A stretch of DNA of 64,000 nt from an uncultured cyanobacterium (GTDB taxonomy: Bacteria; Cyanobacteriota; Cyanobacteriia; Cyanobacteriales; CAWUOF01), in NCBI GenBank assembly GCA_963744145.1, contig CAVUSO010000001.1, positions 5,568,001 through 5,632,000 of the forward strand. The letters are read 5' to 3'. The position numbers and the translations under genes were made by a program. The notes below the pieces were generated by a model. That model ran no database searches, was not told the DNA's origin, and worked only from the letters and a program-made list of their open reading frames with translations. This document shows positions 38,378 through 49,895 of this stretch, piece by piece; within the stretch, counting starts at the first letter, position 1; every line of letters begins with the position of its first letter.

Positions 38378-38743
38378 ATGAAACAGATTTTGGTGGTAGA
38401 TGATTCATCGACCATGCGTCGCATGGTGATGGCATCATTGCAAAATTTGCAAGATGTAAAGTTTGATCAAGCTAGCAATGGTTTAGAAGCAGTCGAACAA
38501 TTGGCCATGAAAGTATTCGATTTGATGATTCTCGACTTAAATATGCCGGAGATGCACGGTATGGATGTGCTTAAGTTTGTGCGTGAGCATAATAATTTTA
38601 AGCAAATTCCCATTATTGTACTCAGCACAAAAGGAGATAACTTTACCCAGATCACGGCTATTACTGCGGGGGCATCACACTATATGACTAAACCTTTTGA
38701 GCCACAAATTCTGGCGGAACAGGTCAAGGCTTTATTAGAATAA
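38378..38743 (+). CDS. cheY: CheY-like response regulator
   Basis: ILVVDDS, LDLNMPEMHG, LST, TKPF; GGAG upstream of ATG 38378. Confidence 0.9.
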   Translation: MKQILVVDDSSTMRRMVMASLQNLQDVKFDQASNGLEAVEQLAMKVFDLMILDLNMPEMHGMDVLKFVREHNNFKQIPIIVLSTKGDNFTQITAITAGASHYMTKPFEPQILAEQVKALLE

Positions 38744-38937
38744 ACAAAATCAATTCAAACATCATCACGCCAATGACCAGCAAGTGAGGTGAAGCGATCG
38801 CAGATAAAAATGCCAAAATCGGTGACTTGAGTTTGGGTAGATCCAAGTTCTTGCTGAATCAAAACAAGGTTGGGAGTGTTCACCAAGTAATTAGACAGCA
38901 AAAACTTGTGGAATGCAGAGGATTTATCGTAGTAGCT

Positions 38938-41118
38938 ATGGCGGAAACAAACAATTTTTTTGCTGAATTTCTTGATGATTACTTTGCGGAATGCGACGAA
39001 CATTTGACCCTAATCCGGCGCAACTTACTTGCTATTGATCACCAACTAGAAAAAGGAGAGATAGAACCACAAACTCTCGAAGAAATGCTGCGAAGCTTTC
39101 ACTCGCTTAAAGGATTATCAGGGATGGTAAGTGTTAAAGAAGCCGAGCAATTATCCCATCAAATCGAAAGCTATTTACGAGGACTGCGATCGCAAGAAAT
39201 CATCGTAAATACTGAGGGAATTAATATTTTAATAGCGGGCATCAAGATGCTAGAATTAGTCATCAATAATCGTCGCGCTAACCAACCTGCTCCCGATATT
39301 AACCCAGTTTTGGTCCAACTAGAAAAACTGTTCCCAAAACCAGCAGAAGAGTCAGGATTGATGCGCTCAGAGCCAATAGCTAGTCATCAATCTGATGCTG
39401 ATGCAATTGGACTCAGGGATGTGCTAACAACTATTACCCCAAAAATCCCAGAAATTGATTTTCAACTTTCCCCCCAAGAAACCCAGAAAATCGAAGCAGC
39501 GATCGCCCTAAAAGAACGAATTTTTCACTTTGAGTTTTCACCAATATCAGAGCGAGTTGAACAAGGGATAAACGTCAACAATATTCGGGCTCGGTTACAG
39601 TCGATCGGCACCATTATTCATGCAGCACCTCGGGTCAAATCTGGGGATGGAATAGTGTTTGATTTTTTAGTAGCAACTTCAGGAGAAGAAACCGATTTTG
39701 CCCATTGGAAACAAGACGGATTACTTTATGAAATTTGGCAAATAGCACCCCAAGCACAGCCCGAAAACATCAGCCAAAACAGCCAAAAAACCACCGGAGA
39801 ATTAGCATCAGAAACAGATTTTACCACCAACACAATTACTACTGAAATTACTAAAAAAACTGCTTCAGTAGCAAGCAACGTAGTTCGAGTAGATTTAGCG
39901 AGACTAGATGAACTCATGCGAATAGTTGGGGAATTAGTAATTAGTCGCGCTCGCTTAGAAGATCACATTAAAAATCTCGCAGCAACTCTCAATGTACCAC
40001 AATTACGACCCTTACGAGAAAGCAACCAAGCCATAGAAAGACAATTGCGAGATTTGCGATCGAGCGTCATGAGAGTACGTCTAGTGCCGATCGGAGAATT
40101 ATTTGCGCGGATGCAATTTGCTGTGCGAGATTTAGCCAGAGAAAATCACAAAAAAGTTGTGGTAGAAGTGAGTGGAGAACAAACAGAAATCGACAAATTT
40201 GTAGTCGAAAGGATGATTGATCCGCTCCTCCATTTAGTGCGAAATGCAGTTGGTCACGGGTTAGAAACAGAAGCAGAAAGGGTGCGTGGTGGTAAATCCC
40301 CCGAAGGGAAACTAACTTTACGAGCTTTAACCGCTGGAGAAACAGTCATAATTCAAGTTGAAGATGATGGTAGAGGAATTGATGCTCAAAAGATCACTGA
40401 ACGTGCGGTGAAATTGGGGTTAATGAATGAAACTGAAAGAAAAGCAGCTCTAACCGTTTTAACTGAAGATGGAAATCAGGAAATTTTAGGAGGATTATTA
40501 CAAACAACCATCCTCGATATTTTGTGCTATCCAGGTTTTTCAATTCGGGAAAAAGCTGATTTAACTAGCGGACGGGGAGTGGGGATGACGATCGTTAAAA
40601 ATACAGTCCAAGAATTAGGAGGAATGATTACTCTCAATACTCATCCCGATCTCGGTACTCGGTTTACCATTCAATTACCTTTAACCTTAGCCATAGCTGA
40701 TGCTTTAATAGTTACTGTTGGTGAACAAACCTTTGCTGTACCTGAATCATTAGTTTTAGAAGTGATCGATATTCGCTCTGAAAAAATTGTGGTTTTAGAA
40801 AATAACGAAATCATTTCCTATCGCCATAGTGTTTTGCCCATAATTAGTCTGAGTAAATTCTTTAACATCAACGCAACTGCCCAAAAACCAGGTTATGTAT
40901 TTGTGGTTGGTACTAGAAACAATAATGATCGTTATTGTCATCATCTGCTGGGAATCGGAGTCGATCGCATTCTCGGAATGCGGGAAATAGTTGTACTTCC
41001 TCTCACCGATCCTCTAGTGCAAGTTCCTGGTATTTCTGGAGCTACTGAATTAGGAGATAGACAGGTAGTTTTAATCCTTGATCCTGGGGCAATTGGCAAA
41101 ATTAAAATCCAAAATTAA
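38938..41118 (+). CDS. cheA: Chemotaxis histidine kinase CheA (no fused receiver domain)
   Basis: HPt RSFHSLKG, VRVDLARLDELM, HLVRNAVGHG, SGRGVGM, LPLTLAI, C-terminal CheW domain. Confidence 0.95.
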   Translation: MAETNNFFAEFLDDYFAECDEHLTLIRRNLLAIDHQLEKGEIEPQTLEEMLRSFHSLKGLSGMVSVKEAEQLSHQIESYLRGLRSQEIIVNTEGINILIAGIKMLELVINNRRANQPAPDINPVLVQLEKLFPKPAEESGLMRSEPIASHQSDADAIGLRDVLTTITPKIPEIDFQLSPQETQKIEAAIALKERIFHFEFSPISERVEQGINVNNIRARLQSIGTIIHAAPRVKSGDGIVFDFLVATSGEETDFAHWKQDGLLYEIWQIAPQAQPENISQNSQKTTGELASETDFTTNTITTEITKKTASVASNVVRVDLARLDELMRIVGELVISRARLEDHIKNLAATLNVPQLRPLRESNQAIERQLRDLRSSVMRVRLVPIGELFARMQFAVRDLARENHKKVVVEVSGEQTEIDKFVVERMIDPLLHLVRNAVGHGLETEAERVRGGKSPEGKLTLRALTAGETVIIQVEDDGRGIDAQKITERAVKLGLMNETERKAALTVLTEDGNQEILGGLLQTTILDILCYPGFSIREKADLTSGRGVGMTIVKNTVQELGGMITLNTHPDLGTRFTIQLPLTLAIADALIVTVGEQTFAVPESLVLEVIDIRSEKIVVLENNEIISYRHSVLPIISLSKFFNINATAQKPGYVFVVGTRNNNDRYCHHLLGIGVDRILGMREIVVLPLTDPLVQVPGISGATELGDRQVVLILDPGAIGKIKIQN

Positions 41119-41196
41119 CTGTGAAAAATCATTTTTGCCTCCGCTTTAATTTTGGATATTTTTATCAAAAGATTGGGTAAATTACGATGAATACAG

Positions 41197-41694
41197 TTGA
41201 GTCAAATTATGTTAAATCCTGACCATGCCCAAACTGAACAAACAACTTTCATTTTATTTGAGCTAGCAGATACCATCTATGGAATTCAGTCCCAAATAGT
41301 CCAACAAATGGAAATGGTAGAGAGAATTACCCCCGTTCCTAATACTCCCGACTTTGTGGAAGGATTAGTTTTTTCTCGCGGTCAAGTAATTCCAGCGATT
41401 GATTTGCGGGTAAGATTTGGATTTAAAAAAATACCTTACGATACCCGATCGCGGTTAATTGTCATTCATACCAGCAACCGGACTGTTGGATTAATCGCCG
41501 ATACAGCTAGAGAATTTGTGACCATTTCTAGTAATATTATTATGCCACCTCCCGAAGGAATTTCTGGATTAAGCAGCAAATATTTAGTCGGAGTAGCTAA
41601 TTTATCTGACCGTCTAATCTTGATTGTCAATCCGGCTGAATTAATCAATATTATAGAGCCAATATCATCAAGCATAAAAATCAGCTCAAACTAA
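41197..41694 (+). CDS. cheW: CheW coupling protein
   Basis: ITPVPNTPDFVEGLVFSRGQVIPAIDLR, VGLIAD. Confidence 0.93.
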   Translation: MSQIMLNPDHAQTEQTTFILFELADTIYGIQSQIVQQMEMVERITPVPNTPDFVEGLVFSRGQVIPAIDLRVRFGFKKIPYDTRSRLIVIHTSNRTVGLIADTAREFVTISSNIIMPPPEGISGLSSKYLVGVANLSDRLILIVNPAELINIIEPISSSIKISSN

Positions 41695-41709
41695 GGAGAA
41701 TCATTAACT

Positions 41710-43824
41710 ATGGCCATCATATTTGGAATTTTTTTCATCGCCATTTTAGGAATGGGAATATTTACGGTAGGCAATTTACGCAACAAAGTTAATCAAGAAA
41801 TTTCTCAAATGCGAGAAGAATCAAAACAATTAACTAAAACAGCCCAAGAAATTGCTCGGATTGCTGATGAAGTAAAAGTCGGTGGAGAGTCACAAATTCG
41901 CTCACTAGAAGAAACCGTCAACGGCACTAGCCAAATGACCAAATCCCTGCAAGAAACAGCAGCTCAAGCTGAAACAGTCACCACCTTATCCGAAGAATTA
42001 GTCGCAGCAGTCAACGAAATGGGAGCTTCGATCGAAGAAGTGACCAAAAACACCACCGACTTAGCTATGGGGATCAGTGAAACTGCCACAGCGATCGAAA
42101 CCTCATCATTATCAATTAAATCCTTGGCAATCAGTGCCCAGGAAATGGCAACTTCTTCCACCCAAGTCAGCACTTCCATTAACCAAATTGCTGCATCAAT
42201 TAAAAACCTTAATCGCGATACAGAAACTTTAGCTACTTCCATTAACGAAACAGCAGCTTCCGTAGAAGAAATGACGCGATCGATCCAAGGAGTAGCTAAC
42301 AATGCTGATGATTTAACCTCAGCTTCAGAACAAACAACAGCTTCGATGACAGAAATGGCTACCTCGATCGAAGAAGTATCAGCTACTACCGAAAACTTAG
42401 CTGGGATCGTGCAAGAAGTAGCAGGTTCAATGGAAGAAATGTCTTCCTCCGTCCAGGGGGTAGCGCAAAATGCTGATCGGATTACCAACGCTGCTACTAA
42501 TGCTGCTACTAGTGCTACCCAACTCGATCGCTCGATCCGTTCTGTGACCAATCTGACCAAACAAGCAACAGATATTACCCAGCGAGTCAGACGGGATGCG
42601 GAGGAAGGGGGAGCAACGGTTCAAAAAGCCATTAACGGTTTAGGTCGAGTCCGAGAATCGATGGTTCAATCAGCAGAAGTAATTCGGGAAATGGGTAAGC
42701 GTACCAATGAAATTAGCAGTATCGTCGATGCGATTAACCTAATTTCCGAGCGCACTAATTTATTATCTTTAAATGCTTCGATCGAAGCGGCTCGAGCTGG
42801 AGAAGCTGGACGCGGTTTTGCCGTAGTAGCTGAAGAAATTCGCAACTTAGCAGATCGAGCTGCCCAAGCAACCACAGATATTGCTAGTATTATCAAATCA
42901 TTGCAATCAGTAGTCAATGAAGCGGTATCTACTTCCAATGAAGGTGTGCGCGTAGCAGAAGAAAGCGGTAATTTAGCCGAAGCTGGTGTAAATGGCTTGA
43001 AAAAAATTCTTGATGGGATCGAAGAAACATCGCTATTAGTAGCTCAAATTAACCGTGCTTCTGAAGAACAATTACTCGCGGGTACTAATGTAGTTAATGC
43101 GGTCAATACTACAGCCAATCAGGCCAAAGAAGTAGCATTTGCTACCAATGAACAAGCAAAAACTGCCAACATGATCCTTCAATCGACCTTACAAACCCGG
43201 AAAGTAACCCAGCAAGTAACTATCGCCATGAATGAGCAAGCAAAAGCAGTTCGAGATGTCATGAAAGCCGCCCAAAACACGAACAATTTAGCTGGTCAAG
43301 TTCGCAAAGCTACCACCGAACAAGCTAATGGGATTAACCAAATTATGAAAGCTGTGGAAATTATGCGTAAGGGGGCAAATACTACTAGTCGAGCTTTGGC
43401 AGAACAAACTATAGCTGGAGAACAAATTACTCAAGCAACTAATCAGATGGCTAAGTTAGTTAACAGTGTTAGTAAAGAAATAGACCAACAAGCTGCTAAC
43501 GCTAATCAGATTACTAAATCAGCCGACAATATGCGCCGACAATCACAACAAGTTGCCCGGGCAATGACTGAACAAAGTCGGGCAGTTAAGGATATGTATG
43601 ATGTCGTGCAAAATGTAGCCAAACAAATTTCTTTGATTACTCGTTCTAATCGTGAACACTCTAGTATATCAGCTAAGATACTTAATTCGATCGCCGAGAT
43701 TCGGGTGATCACTGAGCGGAACTTTCAAGGAGTAAAAACCACTTTGCAATATACCGTTGATTTACTAGAACGGGCTCGAGTATTAACAGCAATTACCGAT
43801 CGCTTAAACGGTAACAGGAGCTAA
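41710..43824 (+). CDS. Methyl-accepting chemotaxis protein, sensorless, very long hairpin
   Basis: One N-terminal TM helix; tip [33 protein letters not shown] centred at residue ~365 of 704. Confidence 0.93.
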
Positions 43825-43880
43825 AAAAATTAGGAATGATCTAGCCTAATCGCCAATTAAAACCGATATCATTAATCACC

Positions 43881-46723
43881 ATGACTAACCAACCTGGAAT
43901 ATATATCTTTACAACTGATGCTCATCTCTTCGTATTATCTTGGGATAGCAATCTAGCCCAAGTAACACAAATACCAACTCAGGTCGCCTGTGGTCAACAG
44001 CTAACAGCACTGATTCCCGACTTAGCACAGCGAGGTTTACTGGCAAGATTTGAACGAGTTTTGACCCAAGGGGTCATAGAAACTTTAGCACCAGCATTTC
44101 ATCATTATCTAATTCCCTGTCTCCCACCAACCGGAGCTAAATATTTTGACAAAATGCAACAAAGGGTAACTATTACCCCCCTGCGAGAGGGAAACGATCT
44201 ATTGGATAATTCCAGCAAACGTATTACTGGCATCATTGTTACCATCGAAGATGTCACTGCTCGGTTAGAAAAAGAACGGGATTTAGCCGCACAATTGGCT
44301 AGCCCGAACGAAAGCGATCGAGTCAGAGCCGCTCAGGAACTGGCTAATACCCAAAGCTCAGACCCAATTGAAGTCCCAACAACTCCAGAAAAATCTCCGT
44401 TAATGTTAGCTTTGGGAAACGAAAGTTGGCGAGTGCGTCAGATTGTGGTAGATAACCTAGCAGTCAAAGCCGATCCTAGCACCACGGCAATGTTGCTGCG
44501 AACCCTACGGGAAGAACATCGCAATCTCAGTGTTTTAAATAGCACATTGCAAGTATTAGCCCTGAGTAATATCGATGTAGTCGCACCCTTAATTGAATTT
44601 TTGCAAGATCCCGATGAAGAATTGCGAACTTACGCAGCTTTGGCTTTAGGCGATCGCCAAGATCCCCGGTCGGTTCCTGCTCTGATTGTCGCAGTCCAAT
44701 CCGATCCAGATATAAATGTGCGCTATCACGCGATCGAAGCTTTAGGTAAACTACACCCACCCGAAGCTACGGAAGCTTTACTCGCGATCGCCCTATCCCG
44801 AGATTTTTTCCTGGGCTTTCCGGCGCTAGATGCTTTAAGGCAAATTGGTGATACTAGCATTGCCCCTCGGTTAGTCCCCTTACTCGCAGATCGGTTACTT
44901 TGTTCCCCGACCGCAGTCGCTTTAGGATTACTAGGTGATCAAGAAGTCGTTCAGCCTTTAGTCCAGTTGCTCAATCAAGTCAATGCACCGACCAGAGCGA
45001 TCGCCCAATCCTTAGCTGCTTTATATCACCGCTATGAAAACTTGTACGGAGAAGGGCCTCATATTAGTGATTTATTTCAAGAAAGTGTGACCCTGAATGG
45101 CTGCCAAAATCTCCTAGATAGCCTATCTGTGGCAAATCCAGAAGAACTCAAAAGTCTGGTATTGTTATTGGGCTGGGTAGATAACCAGGAATGTGCCAAA
45201 GCACTCACCCGTTTACTCAGTGAACCCGCCGTTCGTAAAGAAGTAGTAGAAGCTTTAGTACGTTATGGCGAAGGTGTCAGCGAACTATTAATAGAGCAAT
45301 TAGAATCCCAGGATTTAGAAACCAGATCAGCCGCCATCGTTGCCCTGGGACGGATCGGCGATACTCGCTCAGTTGGGATTTTAATCAAATTATTAAAAGT
45401 AGATCCAGAATTATCGATCGCCGCAGCTAATGCTTTAGCCCGGATTGGCGATCGTTCCGCTTTTACCCCCCTCTTAAATTTATTGGGACACCAAGATGCG
45501 GGAGTCCGTCAAGCAGCGATCGCTGCTTTGAATTCTCTCGGGCATCCTGATATGCCCCAACATTTACAGACCCTATTGCGGGATGAAAGTGCTTATGTGC
45601 GCGAGTCAGCGGTGAAAATAGCTGGCTATTTTGCTTTTACAGAATGCTTAGAACTGTTTTTACAATCTTGTCAAGATCCGGATGAACGAGTCCGACGGGC
45701 AGCGATCGAACATTTGCCTTATGTGACTGAAGACGAACAGGAAATTCTCCCGATTTTGGCCGCCGCCCTGGCCAGAGAAACTCCCAACGTGCGAGCCGCC
45801 GCCACCCGAGTTTTAGCTCAGATTAATGCTAATCTGGCTTTTCCCTATCTGAAAACCGCGATCGCCGATGCTGATCCTTGGGTTCGTTATTATGCAGCTC
45901 GTTCCATGGGTATACATGGCTATCCGGAAGCTCTGGAGGATTTGGCGCATCTAGTCCAAAGAGATCCAGCCCATCAAGTCCGAGCCGCTGCTGTGGAAGG
46001 ACTGGGGCGCATTGGGAGTATCCGGGCGGTCACGATTCTGGCTCCATTAGTCCTCGGATTGGCCCAAAGAGGTAGCGATGATGGTGAACTAACTCGGACA
46101 GCAATTCGCGCTCTGGGAAATATCGGACATCCCGATGCGGTGCCATTATTACTGAATGTATTGCGATCACCTCTGGCCCACGCCGCATTGATGCCTGTAT
46201 TGCTTTAGGAGAAAGAGGTGGACAACAAGCTGTGGATGCTTTGCAATGGATCGCCGGCTCTGATCCCGATCCCCAAGTGGTGCAAGCGGCGATCGAAGCG
46301 TTAGCGCAAATGTGTAGTTCCGAGTCGATCGCTGCACTAATCGAACTGATTGCCGATCACCAGCGTGTTAATGCTTGTATTGCTGTGCTGGTGCGTCTCA
46401 ATAGTCAACCTCTTGTGGCTTTGGAACAGCAAATCGAATGGATTGGGCGGGGTTTACATCATCCCCATGCTGGAGTGCGTTGTGGTGTGATCGAAATTCT
46501 CACCCGTCTCAAACATCCCCATGCTTCCGAATTACTGATTTCTGCTCTTGGAGATCAGGATGCTTCTGTACGTCTCTATGCGGTGCGCTCTCTCAAACAC
46601 TTGGGCAATCGTTATGCCCAAGAGCAACTCTCTTCCTTAGCCCGAAATGACCCCGATGCTGCTGTTCGTCGTGCCGCCCAAAAGGTGCTGCAAACGCAAT
46701 TTCTCCCCTTCAATCAATCATAG
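43881..46723 (+). CDS. PAS + HEAT-repeat protein, split by a frameshift at ~46170 (track ORFs 43881-46208 and 46232-46723)
   Basis: N-terminal PAS-like segment (IFTTD..SW..ACGQQLTALIPDL..IVTIEDVT) then many VRxxAxxALG repeats; the second frame reads RRIDACIALGERGG upstream of 46232. Confidence 0.85.
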
Positions 46724-47006
46724 CAAATGAGGATTTAGGATTCCTCACTTGTTAACGCTGAATTGATTATATATGAGCAAGAATAAATCGGCAAAGTGCA
46801 ACTCTAGTCAAGAAAATTAAGGATTTTCTTTGGCTACTGATGCTAGTTTGAAAATGCCATATTTCTCTCTTGACTTGATCACTCTGAGTAGTTAGTAAGC
46901 CTGCCGCAATTTTAATGCTCGAATGTTCCCTAATGACTGGTTAATTAATCACTCATTACCCAAAACTAACTTGGATTTCTAAAAACCTTAAAAATGCGAG
47001 TCAAAA

Positions 47007-47846
47007 ATGCGAATTCCGGAACGAATTAATTTATCTGATAATATATTTATGATCTTGCGAGATTTGATTCATGAACGCACAGGAGTATATTATGATAGCA
47101 GCAAGCATGATATTTTAGCAGATCGACTTTCCCCACGTTTATTTGAACAAGGTCTTGATTCTTTTTTAGACTACTACTATTTGCTCAAATACGATTTAAA
47201 AGCTGAAGAAGAATGGAAATATGTAGTCGATGCTCTGGCGGTACTAGAAACTTTTTTTTATCGAGAATTTGATCAAATCCAAGCTCTGGTAGATGTATTA
47301 GTACCAGCATATTTTGCTCGTAACAGTAAAGAAACTTTACGGATTTGGAGTGCTGCTTGTGCGACTGGAGAAGAACCCCTAACGATCGCTATAGCACTGA
47401 ATGAAGCAGGCTATTTTCATCGTTTTCCAATTGAAATTTATGCGACTGATGCTAGTAATAAAGCCATTTTAAAAGCTAAACAAGGAATTTATCGTGAACG
47501 CTCTTTTCGCAATTTTTCGGTGGAATTACGATCAAAATATTTTCAAGAAATTGAACCAGGAAATTGGCAAATATACCCAGAAATATTCAATAAAATTAAA
47601 TGGGGAACAGTGAATTTGATTGTCCCATCTCAAGTTAATCTATTTGCTAATTCATCGATGATATTTTGCCGAAATGTCTTTATCTATTTTTCGGAAAAAG
47701 CCATTCGCCAAACGGTCAAATTATTTGCTGAAAAAATGCCTGTGCCGGGGTATTTATTTGTCGGTGCTTCTGAATCTCTATTAAAATTAAGCAATGATTT
47801 TACCTTACAAGAAATTAATGGAGCATTTGTATATGTAAAAAACTAA
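47007..47846 (+). CDS. cheR: Chemotaxis methyltransferase CheR
   Basis: ETFFYRE, RIWSAACATGEEP, IFCRNVFIYF, GYLFVGASESL. Confidence 0.95.
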   Translation: MRIPERINLSDNIFMILRDLIHERTGVYYDSSKHDILADRLSPRLFEQGLDSFLDYYYLLKYDLKAEEEWKYVVDALAVLETFFYREFDQIQALVDVLVPAYFARNSKETLRIWSAACATGEEPLTIAIALNEAGYFHRFPIEIYATDASNKAILKAKQGIYRERSFRNFSVELRSKYFQEIEPGNWQIYPEIFNKIKWGTVNLIVPSQVNLFANSSMIFCRNVFIYFSEKAIRQTVKLFAEKMPVPGYLFVGASESLLKLSNDFTLQEINGAFVYVKN

Positions 47847-48057
47847 AAATGAATTTTTTTCAAAAATTAATGTGAATTTGGTTGACTAATCTGTATAATT
47901 AACTTAGGTAAAGTTTTTTGAGTGACTCTAGTTTATACTAGCTTAACCCAAAACTAAAAATCAACTCTAATATCGCCGCAATGTGGGGTTTAATTTGTTA
48001 GTAAAGTACCCTACAGAATAAGGAAAAAATAAGTAAAAACATAACCAGGATAAAAAA

Positions 48058-49107
48058 ATGGAGCAAGTTTTACGGGTTTTAGTAGTAGATGATTCTGCAT
48101 ATATCCGTAAGGTAGTCAAGCAAATGCTATCTCGTAGTCCTTTTATCGAAGTGGTGGGTACTGCTCGTGATGGGCAGGAAGCATTAGAACTGGTGTCACA
48201 GCTCAAACCGGACGTAGTAACATTAGATTTAATTATGCCCAATATGGATGGGGTGCAGTTTTTGCAGAAGCAGATGGCAGAACAACCAATTCCAGTTGTG
48301 GTAGTAAGTATTGCGAGTGAGGGTGGTGAACAAGCGTTAGCTGCTCTAGACGCAGGAGCAGTTGATTTTGTCCAAAAGCCAACCGCATTAGCAACCGAAA
48401 AGATTTTTGAAATTAGCGATGAATTAATCGAAAAAGTTAAAGCTGCTGCTCAGGTGCCTCTGATGCGTCTACCTACTATGCCCCCACCGGAACCAAAATT
48501 ACCTGCTGCTTTGCTATTTACTAACCGTCCCAAAATCGATCTAGTGGTTTTAGGTATTTCCACAGGAGGTCCCCAAGCCTTGAGTTATCTAATTCCCCAA
48601 TTCCCAGCTAATTTACCGATTCCGATCGCCATAGTTTTACATATGCCGGTGGGCTATACAGAAATGTATGCTCATCGATTAAATGAAATGTCAAATCTGG
48701 AGGTAGTGGAAGCTAGTCAAGGTGATGTACTACGTCCGGGAACGGTATTTATTGCTCCTGCTGGACGACATTTAACTTTTATCCGTCAAGCAAATGGTCA
48801 AGTGATCACTCATCTCGATGCTCGTCCCTTCGATACTCTGCATCGTCCTAGTGTTGATGTCATGTTTCAATCAGCCGCAGAAGTATTCGGCGATCGAGTT
48901 TTAGGTGTAGTGATGACAGGAATGGGATCAGATGGCAAACAGGGTGCGGCTTGGATTAAATCTCATGGTGGTACAATTTTTACCGAAGCTGAGGAAACTT
49001 GTGTGGTCTATGGAATGCCCCGTTGTGTAGTCGAAGCCAATTTGAGTGACAAAATTGTGCCCTTACAAGAAGTCACATCAGCTATTCTCGCCCAATTGTC
49101 ATTGTAG
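48058..49107 (+). CDS. cheB: Chemotaxis methylesterase CheB (receiver + esterase)
   Basis: VVDDS, GISTGGP, HMP, RPSVD, MTGMGSDG, VVYGMP. Confidence 0.96.
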   Translation: MEQVLRVLVVDDSAYIRKVVKQMLSRSPFIEVVGTARDGQEALELVSQLKPDVVTLDLIMPNMDGVQFLQKQMAEQPIPVVVVSIASEGGEQALAALDAGAVDFVQKPTALATEKIFEISDELIEKVKAAAQVPLMRLPTMPPPEPKLPAALLFTNRPKIDLVVLGISTGGPQALSYLIPQFPANLPIPIAIVLHMPVGYTEMYAHRLNEMSNLEVVEASQGDVLRPGTVFIAPAGRHLTFIRQANGQVITHLDARPFDTLHRPSVDVMFQSAAEVFGDRVLGVVMTGMGSDGKQGAAWIKSHGGTIFTEAEETCVVYGMPRCVVEANLSDKIVPLQEVTSAILAQLSL

Positions 49108-49235
49108 CAATTTGATCTAGGGATAGTTTCAATAACCAGCTGCCATGGAAAGCATTGCCTGTTGATCTCGAAGATTTGCTAGTGGTGCTTTCTGACAGTT
49201 GTTGTTATTCAAGCTCATGGTAAAAGGAGTTTTTC

Positions 49236-49895
49236 ATGTTAATTAGCGATCGCCAAAAATCTGCTCTTACCCTGCTAATTAAAATGGCATTTTCTCGAGT
49301 TAATGAAACTTCACTGGCTGATTTAGTTGGTGCTCCTATTGTCATTAAAATGTCGGAAATTTCCCTTTGTCCAGTCAGCAGAATGACTGAAGAATTTGCC
49401 CTGTTGTTTCCGGAAGAGATCATTAGTGTCCACCAAAGTTTTACTGGCTATATGTCAGGGGATGCCCTGTTGATATTTGATTATTGTAATGCGCTCAGAC
49501 TGATCAATTTAATTGACAAAAATCATGAGTTACCCCGGAATTATATCGATACAACAGCGCGTGATATGCTGATTGAAATCGGCAATATCTTATTAAATAA
49601 TTATTTGGGTATATTAACTAATTGGTTGCAAATTCAAATGTCTTTTACTGTGCCTTCTTTACAGGTAAATTTATTATCTGAGCTGATCAATTCTTTGATA
49701 GTTGGGAAAAATGAATTGCGCTATTGTTTAGTAACACCAGCAACTTTTTATCTTGATGATCAAGTAATTAATGCTAATCTAAATCTCGTTTCTGGTGTGG
49801 TGTCTCTCCACATTTTAATTAAGGCGATCGAAATCTGGGCTGATCTAACTAATGTTTCTTCTGCCAAAATGAACCAAGAATTTAGATTTGACTAA
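49236..49895 (+). CDS. cheC: CheC-like phosphatase
   Basis: QSFTGYMSGDALLIF and DMLIEIGNILLN (ExxN); the first ExxN site appears degenerate. Confidence 0.75.
   Translation: MLISDRQKSALTLLIKMAFSRVNETSLADLVGAPIVIKMSEISLCPVSRMTEEFALLFPEEIISVHQSFTGYMSGDALLIFDYCNALRLINLIDKNHELPRNYIDTTARDMLIEIGNILLNNYLGILTNWLQIQMSFTVPSLQVNLLSELINSLIVGKNELRYCLVTPATFYLDDQVINANLNLVSGVVSLHILIKAIEIWADLTNVSSAKMNQEFRFD

Follow-up and report, generated by a model that had tools for sequence, protein, structure and literature searches.

The window analyzed here is a 64-kb stretch of DNA from an uncultured cyanobacterium (contig CAVUSO010000001.1), and its subject is a chemosensory operon that closes with a degenerate cheC gene. 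The genome of the window (G000) is 96% complete; a genome of the same family (G001) is its nearest relative and served as the reference for comparison. Eight genes, all on the + strand, fill positions 38378..49895 in the order cheY-cheA-cheW-mcp-PAS/HEAT-cheR-cheB-cheC, with gaps of 15–283 bases between them. This order, a CheA without a fused receiver and a locus without a PatA-type regulator had been described in an earlier note made from the letters of the window, and gene calls and domain searches agree with it on all three. The features are as follows, with lengths in amino acids (aa).

38378..38743, + strand: cheY1, a single-domain response regulator of 121 aa (Response_reg, E = 2e-27); sequence reading shows the phospho-acceptor Asp, Thr and Lys motifs
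38938..41118, + strand: cheA, 726 aa, class F13 by proxy; Hpt-dimerisation-HATPase-CheW without a receiver
41197..41694, + strand: cheW (CheW, E = 4e-28)
41710..43824, + strand: mcp, a chemoreceptor of 704 aa; MCPsignal at 288–468 and one N-terminal hydrophobic helix
43881..46723, + strand: PAS/HEAT protein, a Cpc7-like solenoid with an added N-terminal PAS (HEAT_2, E = 3e-81 and 4e-22)
47007..47846, + strand: cheR, a methyltransferase of 279 aa without TPR (CheR, E = 1e-44)
48058..49107, + strand: cheB, receiver and methylesterase; Ser168, His195, Asp292 and receiver Asp57 present
49236..49895, + strand: CheC-like protein, the second cyanobacterial paralogue; of its two ExxN motifs, only the second (Glu114, Asn117) remains

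On reading of the sequence, His55 of the CheA Hpt domain and the N, G1 and G2 boxes are intact; no P2 domain was detected in CheA by Pfam. Neither a domain search nor sequence reading recognized a sensor domain in the receptor. From an alignment of 54 homologues, the tip of the receptor hairpin is placed near residue 365 with arms of an estimated ~340 aa each, and the N-terminal arm carries five matches to the methylation consensus. The long symmetric hairpin is similar in the other full-length homologues listed, while a membrane helix is present in some cyanobacteria only. The last gene has no Pfam match at E ≤ 0.001 (CheC, E = 0.11) and was recognized by a match to the Thermotoga CheC structure (E = 9e-8). 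There is no cheD in the operon and no motility gene beside it, and scans of the locus for promoters and terminators gave site counts not above those of shuffled sequence.

As sequenced, the PAS/HEAT gene is split into two frames (43881-46208 and 46232-46723), which the earlier note had overlooked. The one-base frameshift is likely an assembly error since one short-read contig (run X1) carries an extra C behind 46176 that restores the frame, the G001 orthologue is a single gene (939 aa, with 83% and 87% identity to the two pieces), both pieces are under strong purifying selection when compared to G001 (ratio of nonsynonymous to synonymous substitution, dN/dS, of 0.09 and 0.04), and other chemotaxis genes of the assembly are also broken. 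The run X1 contig has a depth of 5.4 and may come from the source sample or a near twin. With the frame restored, the protein is 947 aa long. Two further breaks, each an assembly error or a pseudogene, are a second cheA split into frames of 730 and 237 aa (G000:C1:5305271-5308116) and a Wsp-like cheB with an internal stop (G000:C1:2264800-2265900). Across seven operon genes (cheY left out), dN/dS against G001 ranged from 0.04 to 0.29 with cheC the highest at 0.29. The operon is real and under purifying selection.

The PAS domain of the HEAT protein is weak in Pfam (E = 0.004) and appears as a β-sheet domain in the model of a close relative (P0001), for which the predicted local distance difference test (pLDDT) was 93. 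A fold search with the HEAT model returned generic solenoids only (CAND1, karyopherins and PP2A A, with template modeling scores of 0.2–0.4) and gave no clue to an enzyme. A look-alike cluster of the HEAT protein from Myxococcota aligns from residue 144 onward and is without PAS, which fits the absence of cheC from the gene list of the Myxococcus xanthus Che7 system. In many cyanobacterial loci (L014, L015, L017, L021, L022 and others), the PAS/HEAT protein is ~150 aa longer (1050–1150 aa) with the extra stretch situated between PAS and the shared solenoid.

As judged by sequence proxies, the window CheA belongs to class F13, the class of Che7, and not to the type IV pilus (Tfp) class. Its core is 45–62% identical to F13-type relatives versus 28–33% to the seven other CheAs of G000. 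In a tree of CheA cores, built without a true F1 CheA or a myxobacterial CheA, it groups with the F13-type relatives apart from those seven (split support 1.0). The class was assigned from two labeled proxies matched by strain and length: the 709-aa CheA of Planktothrix tepida PCC 9214, which is labeled F13 and is among the top matches of the window CheA (48%), and the Gemmatirosa plasmid locus, which has a 651-aa CheA and the same gene order. Table S2 of Berry et al. 2023 (PMC10782961) lists a single F13 CheA of 687 aa for M. xanthus; when this length is set against those in the tables of PMC3945109, elimination leaves CheA7 (683 aa in those tables). The 23 F13 rows of that table comprise 16 Myxococcota, three Cyanobacteria (Planktothricoides, Planktothrix tepida and Spirulina major), two Opitutus, Gemmata and Gemmatirosa. 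Class F10 was considered and rejected; in the same table, it is the class of the 862-aa Che8 CheA. Since the table labels the CheAs of Crinalium (672 aa) and Scytonema hofmannii (769 aa) as F1 and that of P. tepida (709 aa) as F13, and all three fall into one tree group with the window CheA, automatic class labels are unstable for this group.

The locus itself has the F13 gene order (cheY-cheA-cheW-mcp-HEAT-cheR-cheB, with a CheA lacking a receiver). The hallmarks of the Tfp class (a hybrid CheA with a C-terminal receiver, a PatA-type regulator and grouping with Tfp CheAs) are absent from it, as are those of the alternative cellular function (ACF) class, which is Wsp/Frz-like with a receiver on CheA and often a TPR on CheR. 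Thus, the Che7-like, non-Tfp class proposed in the earlier note has held up: the window CheA groups with F13-labeled CheAs away from the Tfp/ACF-like CheAs of its own genome, and the grouping with cyanobacterial Tfp systems that would have spoken against it does not appear in the tree. The suggestion that CheR/CheB methylation adaptation is unusual in a cyanobacterium is weakened, as G000 encodes two more CheB and two more CheR (three of each in total); many ACF-class CheAs of cyanobacteria are tabulated in PMC10782961. No match to FliG_C of the flagellar switch was found in G000; four of 14 controls matched. Two oddities of cheA genes may be recorded here: G000 has a 1639-aa hybrid CheA whose C-terminal part is nearly duplicated in the 693-aa product that comes next (G000:C1:4379430-4386512), and in L021, L118 and L082, cheA and cheW are fused in one frame.

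The end of the operon sets the window apart from its relatives. A total of 120 loci were annotated, 12 near-duplicates were dropped by hand, and the count was made on loci that have cheR and extend 3 kb or more past cheR/cheB. Seven metagenome loci were called cyanobacterial by identity and by the density of HIP1 sites; three of these are in the locus tree, all on its cyanobacterial side. In all 33 non-cyanobacterial loci, the operon continues with cheY2 and cheC, and in 29 of the 33 a PAS-led gene comes next (21 kinase, five GGDEF and three unresolved). The 34 cyanobacterial loci consist of five with the whole trio, one with cheY2 and cheC, 16 with cheC alone (the window included) and 12 with none. 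The trio is found elsewhere in the genome in G473, G548, G434 and G038. In G000, tblastn found no F13-type cheY2 or PAS-kinase. A hybrid kinase at 1.98 Mb of G000:C1 was considered as a displaced output and rejected; its C-terminal half is like that of the trio kinase, but it starts with a receiver and not the F13 PAS. The usual output of the F13 class is a cheY2-cheC-PAS/enzyme trio, and it is lost in the window copy; the earlier note, which proposed action through the HEAT protein, had overlooked this.

The first ExxN motif of CheC is whole in 52 of 52 proteins encoded beside cheY2 and broken in 17 of 17 without cheY2, while the second is kept in 68 of 69, the remaining one being cut short. 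The 17 broken proteins are not independent as they belong to a cyanobacterial duplicate clade (support 98) and need about two events. A CheC phosphatase carries two ExxN active-site motifs, and the window CheC has lost the first and kept the second. Cyanobacteria duplicated cheC and mostly lost or moved the output trio, and the window keeps the second CheC only. The PAS of the output enzymes is a paralogue of the HEAT PAS (40% in Gemmatirosa).

Variants of the tail were also seen. The nearest relatives of the window within family f19 (L108, L109, L110 and L116) carry two tandem cheY1-like genes, and in L108 and L109 the cheY2-cheC-kinase trio is placed between cheR and cheB. A stand-alone cheY-cheC-PAS/GAF/GGDEF trio lies on the minus strand of G000 (G000:C1:5120439-5123154; L027:8439-11154), and its PAS is homologous to the F13 PAS. 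Distant cheC copies (28–34%) like the one in this trio occur in many of the 22 genomes searched.

A complex prediction between the window PAS (residues 1–142) and CheC scored 0.82, and the best of three controls scored 0.00. Contact agreement between runs was at least 98% and the partner pLDDT at least 82. Of 157 solved complexes, 116 reach the mark for such scores, as do two of 215 mismatches; with the alignments made for this study, the mark is a rough guide only. The predicted interface brings PAS residues 62–73 and their neighbors against CheC residues 105–125 and 134–140; Glu114 and Asn117 of CheC are part of it and do not vary across the 66 CheCs aligned. The HEAT-PAS profile score was 164–201 bits in all 23 cyanobacterial loci with cheC and 0–165 bits in the 12 without, and outright deletion of PAS was seen only among cheC-less loci. 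In independent pairs on the tree, PAS decays with cheC loss in four of five with none opposed. Conservation at interface positions drops from 0.80 to 0.52 where the locus has no cheC, compared to 0.91 to 0.79 at other positions. No solved structure is close to the HEAT PAS, and the solved relatives of CheC are the classic ones only. A partial literature search found no paper on PAS-CheC binding; earlier class surveys may mention the cheY2-cheC tail.

The interpretation given an even chance here is that the window carries an F13 operon minus its ancestral cheY2-PAS/kinase output that would signal through CheY1 on the PAS/HEAT protein, with CheC predicted to be docked on PAS. Going by what is established for chemotaxis proteins, the giant receptor without a sensor would form an array together with CheW and CheA, and CheR and CheB would adapt the receptor. 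As the receptor is without a sensor domain, the stimulus probably arrives through a partner or the membrane. CheA would then phosphorylate CheY1 and CheB. By analogy with Myxococcus, phospho-CheY1 may bind the HEAT solenoid; CheY7, to which cheY1 corresponds in position, is reported to bind Cpc7 (PMC11514114, PMC9040617). CheC is modeled on PAS through the helix that bears the surviving ExxN motif, and in this position it could be a tethered or sequestered phosphatase, or an adaptor, that sets the dwell time of CheY1 on the solenoid. With the kinase trio gone, CheY1 on the solenoid tuned by a PAS-docked CheC would be the simplest output remaining. Most likely, the pathway would end in a slow shift of cell state (stress, dormancy or aggregation) as opposed to a direct steering of pili. 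Che7 is reported to link aggregation with sporulation and to help cells resist temperature stress (PMC11514114, PMC9040617). In one genome (G025), cheY1 and the HEAT gene are both gone from a continuous contig while cheA, cheW, mcp, cheR and cheB are kept.

Several points weigh against this interpretation. The alignments for the complex prediction pooled HEAT-PAS with output-PAS and both CheC paralogues, and the result may reflect the families instead of the window copy. Loci without cheC also have lower scores for the HEAT body (p = 0.012), and significance is out of reach for the test on independent pairs (p = 0.125). In L012 and L115, only 0.53 of the interface positions match although both loci have two cheC genes, and L118 is without cheC yet has a near-intact PAS. 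A sensorless receptor fits a HEAT protein that acts as input as well as one that acts as output. The putative orthology with Cpc7 rests on gene order, class and the structure look-alike cluster. Lastly, the earlier note had treated Che7 as purely non-motility, which cannot be maintained given that a cheA7 deletion has an S-motility defect (PMC3945109).

A broader proposal, put forward tentatively at somewhat less than even chance, is that the F13 CheC is a signal adaptor and more than a phosphatase. One face would read phospho-CheY while the other would grip a dedicated PAS that is joined to the HEAT solenoid, to a diguanylate cyclase or to a histidine kinase; cyanobacteria would have duplicated CheC and split both jobs, and the window would keep the HEAT-serving copy. 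A parallel is FliM, in which the middle domain has the CheC fold and passes the CheY signal on to FliG. If true, a CheC adaptor would turn a chemotaxis-type signal into a transcriptional or cyclic di-GMP (c-di-GMP) output.

Of the competing explanations, the strongest, though doubtful, is that the sensorless receptor uses PAS/HEAT as a scaffold for input or adaptation and that output occurs in trans, with CheA phosphorylating the CheY of the stand-alone trio and thereby setting c-di-GMP. The lack of a sensor domain in the receptor favors it, as does the adjacency of mcp, HEAT and cheR, which is the rule across the annotated loci. The trio also has the F13-tail architecture with a homologous PAS (hhalign 97.8%), five of the 33 non-cyanobacterial loci end in a GGDEF, and CheA7 is reported to act on an orphan regulator (PMC9040617). 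However, the CheC of the trio is only 31% identical to the F13-type query compared to 40–65% for F13-linked copies, and the trio looks like a separate paralogous cassette.

A role in tuning type IV pilus gliding or reversals in filamentous cyanobacteria is unlikely. The named carriers are mostly filamentous (Oscillatoria, Kamptonema, Planktothrix, Laspinema and Limnospira), genera that glide, and three PilT-family genes are above cut-off in G000; the S-motility phenotype of the cheA7 deletion (PMC3945109) would also agree. In contrast, the locus is without PatA and a hybrid receiver, its CheA falls outside the Tfp/ACF-like group of the genome, no motility gene is found next to it, and its relatives in other phyla end in kinases or cyclases. 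That the locus is a decaying remnant which no longer signals is very improbable: while the output trio and CheC motif 1 are lost, cheC has the highest dN/dS and the HEAT gene is frameshifted as sequenced, purifying selection is strong on either side of the frameshift, the short-read contig restores the frame, the catalytic residues of CheA, CheB and CheY are present, and the same cheC-only tail occurs in 16 of the 34 cyanobacterial loci.

The F13 operon in cyanobacteria is a patchy family and not a one-off. The receptor (E ≤ 1e-100) is found in 48 of 401 genomes of the order, representing 24 of 144 genera, and in two of 401 genomes of a class-wide sample, G000 among them; a PAS/HEAT fragment matched five of 401 genomes in a phylum-wide sample. 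Named carriers include Oscillatoria, Kamptonema, Laspinema, Planktothrix, Limnospira, Crinalium, Scytonema and Hormoscilla. Outside of cyanobacteria, named relatives at 46–56% identity belong to Blastocatellia, Pyrinomonadaceae, Chloroflexi and Anaerolineae. The closest named ones are Acidobacteriota (Blastocatellia) and Chloroflexota rather than myxobacteria.

In a six-protein tree of 74 loci, which is unrooted and whose outside loci were picked as best HEAT matches, all cyanobacterial loci lie on one side of one branch (0.991), and an IQ-TREE run on 38 rows recovered the same split with a support of 100. Distances for F13 and RpoB correlate over 30 genomes (rho = 0.47, reached in 0 of 2000 permutations). 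From 22 supported F13 splits, 10 are shared with RpoB and nine are in conflict. The window groups with G001 and family f19 in the F13 and RpoB trees alike, weakly (0.64) in the latter. Nine HIP1 sites are present in 11.5 kb, where a second-order Markov model of the region predicts 0.26, and their density is 0.78 per kb in the operon compared to 1.02 for the chromosome; the chromosome-wide median for such a stretch is 11, and nine or fewer occur in 31% of 662 stretches. All five HIP1 sites of the HEAT gene are at identical offsets in G001. A recent single transfer into G000 was rejected on the receptor distribution and the comparisons with RpoB and G001. The history is read as one old acquisition into the order, mostly vertical descent near the tips and many losses, probably with some exchange of the operon among cyanobacteria. 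The acquisition and the long residence that the earlier note had supposed, the latter from HIP1 sites, are supported by the receptor distribution, the cyanobacterial split in the locus trees and the HIP1 offsets shared with G001. Two cyanobacterial F13 loci (L128 and L129) are without a HIP1 site in 12–18 kb, and the HEAT protein of L128 has no PAS; a low-HIP1 lineage or a recent move is possible.

The genes that flank the operon are not conserved in relatives. Just upstream (window:36390-37356) are a NADAR-domain gene and a truncated globin, which are not found next to the operon in relatives; ahead of them lies a pair made up of a phosphonate-binding protein and a HAMP histidine kinase. Immediately downstream, an MgtC/SapB-family gene and a two-domain ABC permease (window:50052-52488) share the strand of the operon.

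The control by arrays of outputs other than flagella and pili is known for few systems only, and studies of F13 cover a single species, whose system has neither PAS nor CheC. Cyanobacterial chemosensory systems are not limited to the Tfp and ACF types. The predicted contact between the CheC helix with Glu114/Asn117 and PAS 62–73 is a testable interface; it would account for how a ten-gene operon shared by several phyla produces its output. Culturable cyanobacteria offer a natural deletion series with the whole trio, a displaced trio, cheC only or none. The earlier claim that the system is uncharacterized in cyanobacteria stands in part: a partial literature search found no paper that describes it (earlier Che7 or class surveys may mention it or the cheY2-cheC tail), but F13 CheAs of three cyanobacteria had already been tabulated in the supplement of PMC10782961. 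The presence of F13 in cyanobacteria is catalogued yet unstudied; what is new is that the tail is reduced, that CheC was duplicated and that CheC is predicted to dock on PAS.

Among known systems, Che7 of M. xanthus is the natural comparison. As given in the tables of PMC3945109, it consists of CheY7-CheA7-CheW7-Mcp7-Cpc7-CheR7-CheB7 (MXAN_6965-6959). Compared by locus tags and without the M. xanthus sequences, it shares with the window its gene order, a CheA without a receiver, a receptor without a sensor domain, HEAT between mcp and cheR, and, by proxy, the CheA class. The window differs in the N-terminal PAS of its HEAT protein, in the cheC that closes the operon and in the single N-terminal hydrophobic helix of its receptor, which Mcp7 lacks. 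The ten-gene F13 operon on plasmid 2 of Gemmatirosa kalamazoonensis (NZ_CP007130.1) and the Blastocatellia-like loci have the same first seven genes in the same order at 41–61% identity, PAS/HEAT included. While these loci go on with cheY2-cheC-PAS/histidine kinase or PAS/GGDEF and have both CheC motifs intact, the window has the degenerate second cheC only. The CheC of Thermotoga maritima (PDB: 1xkr, 2f9z) has a homologous fold with the second ExxN motif aligned; in the window CheC, motif 1 is lost and the predicted partner is PAS and not CheD. The cyanobacterial Tfp (Pix/Tax/Pil/Hmp) and ACF systems occur in the same host group, and the ACF-like loci of G000 also have CheR/CheB; however, the CheAs of those systems end in a receiver, which the window CheA is without, and group separately in the tree.

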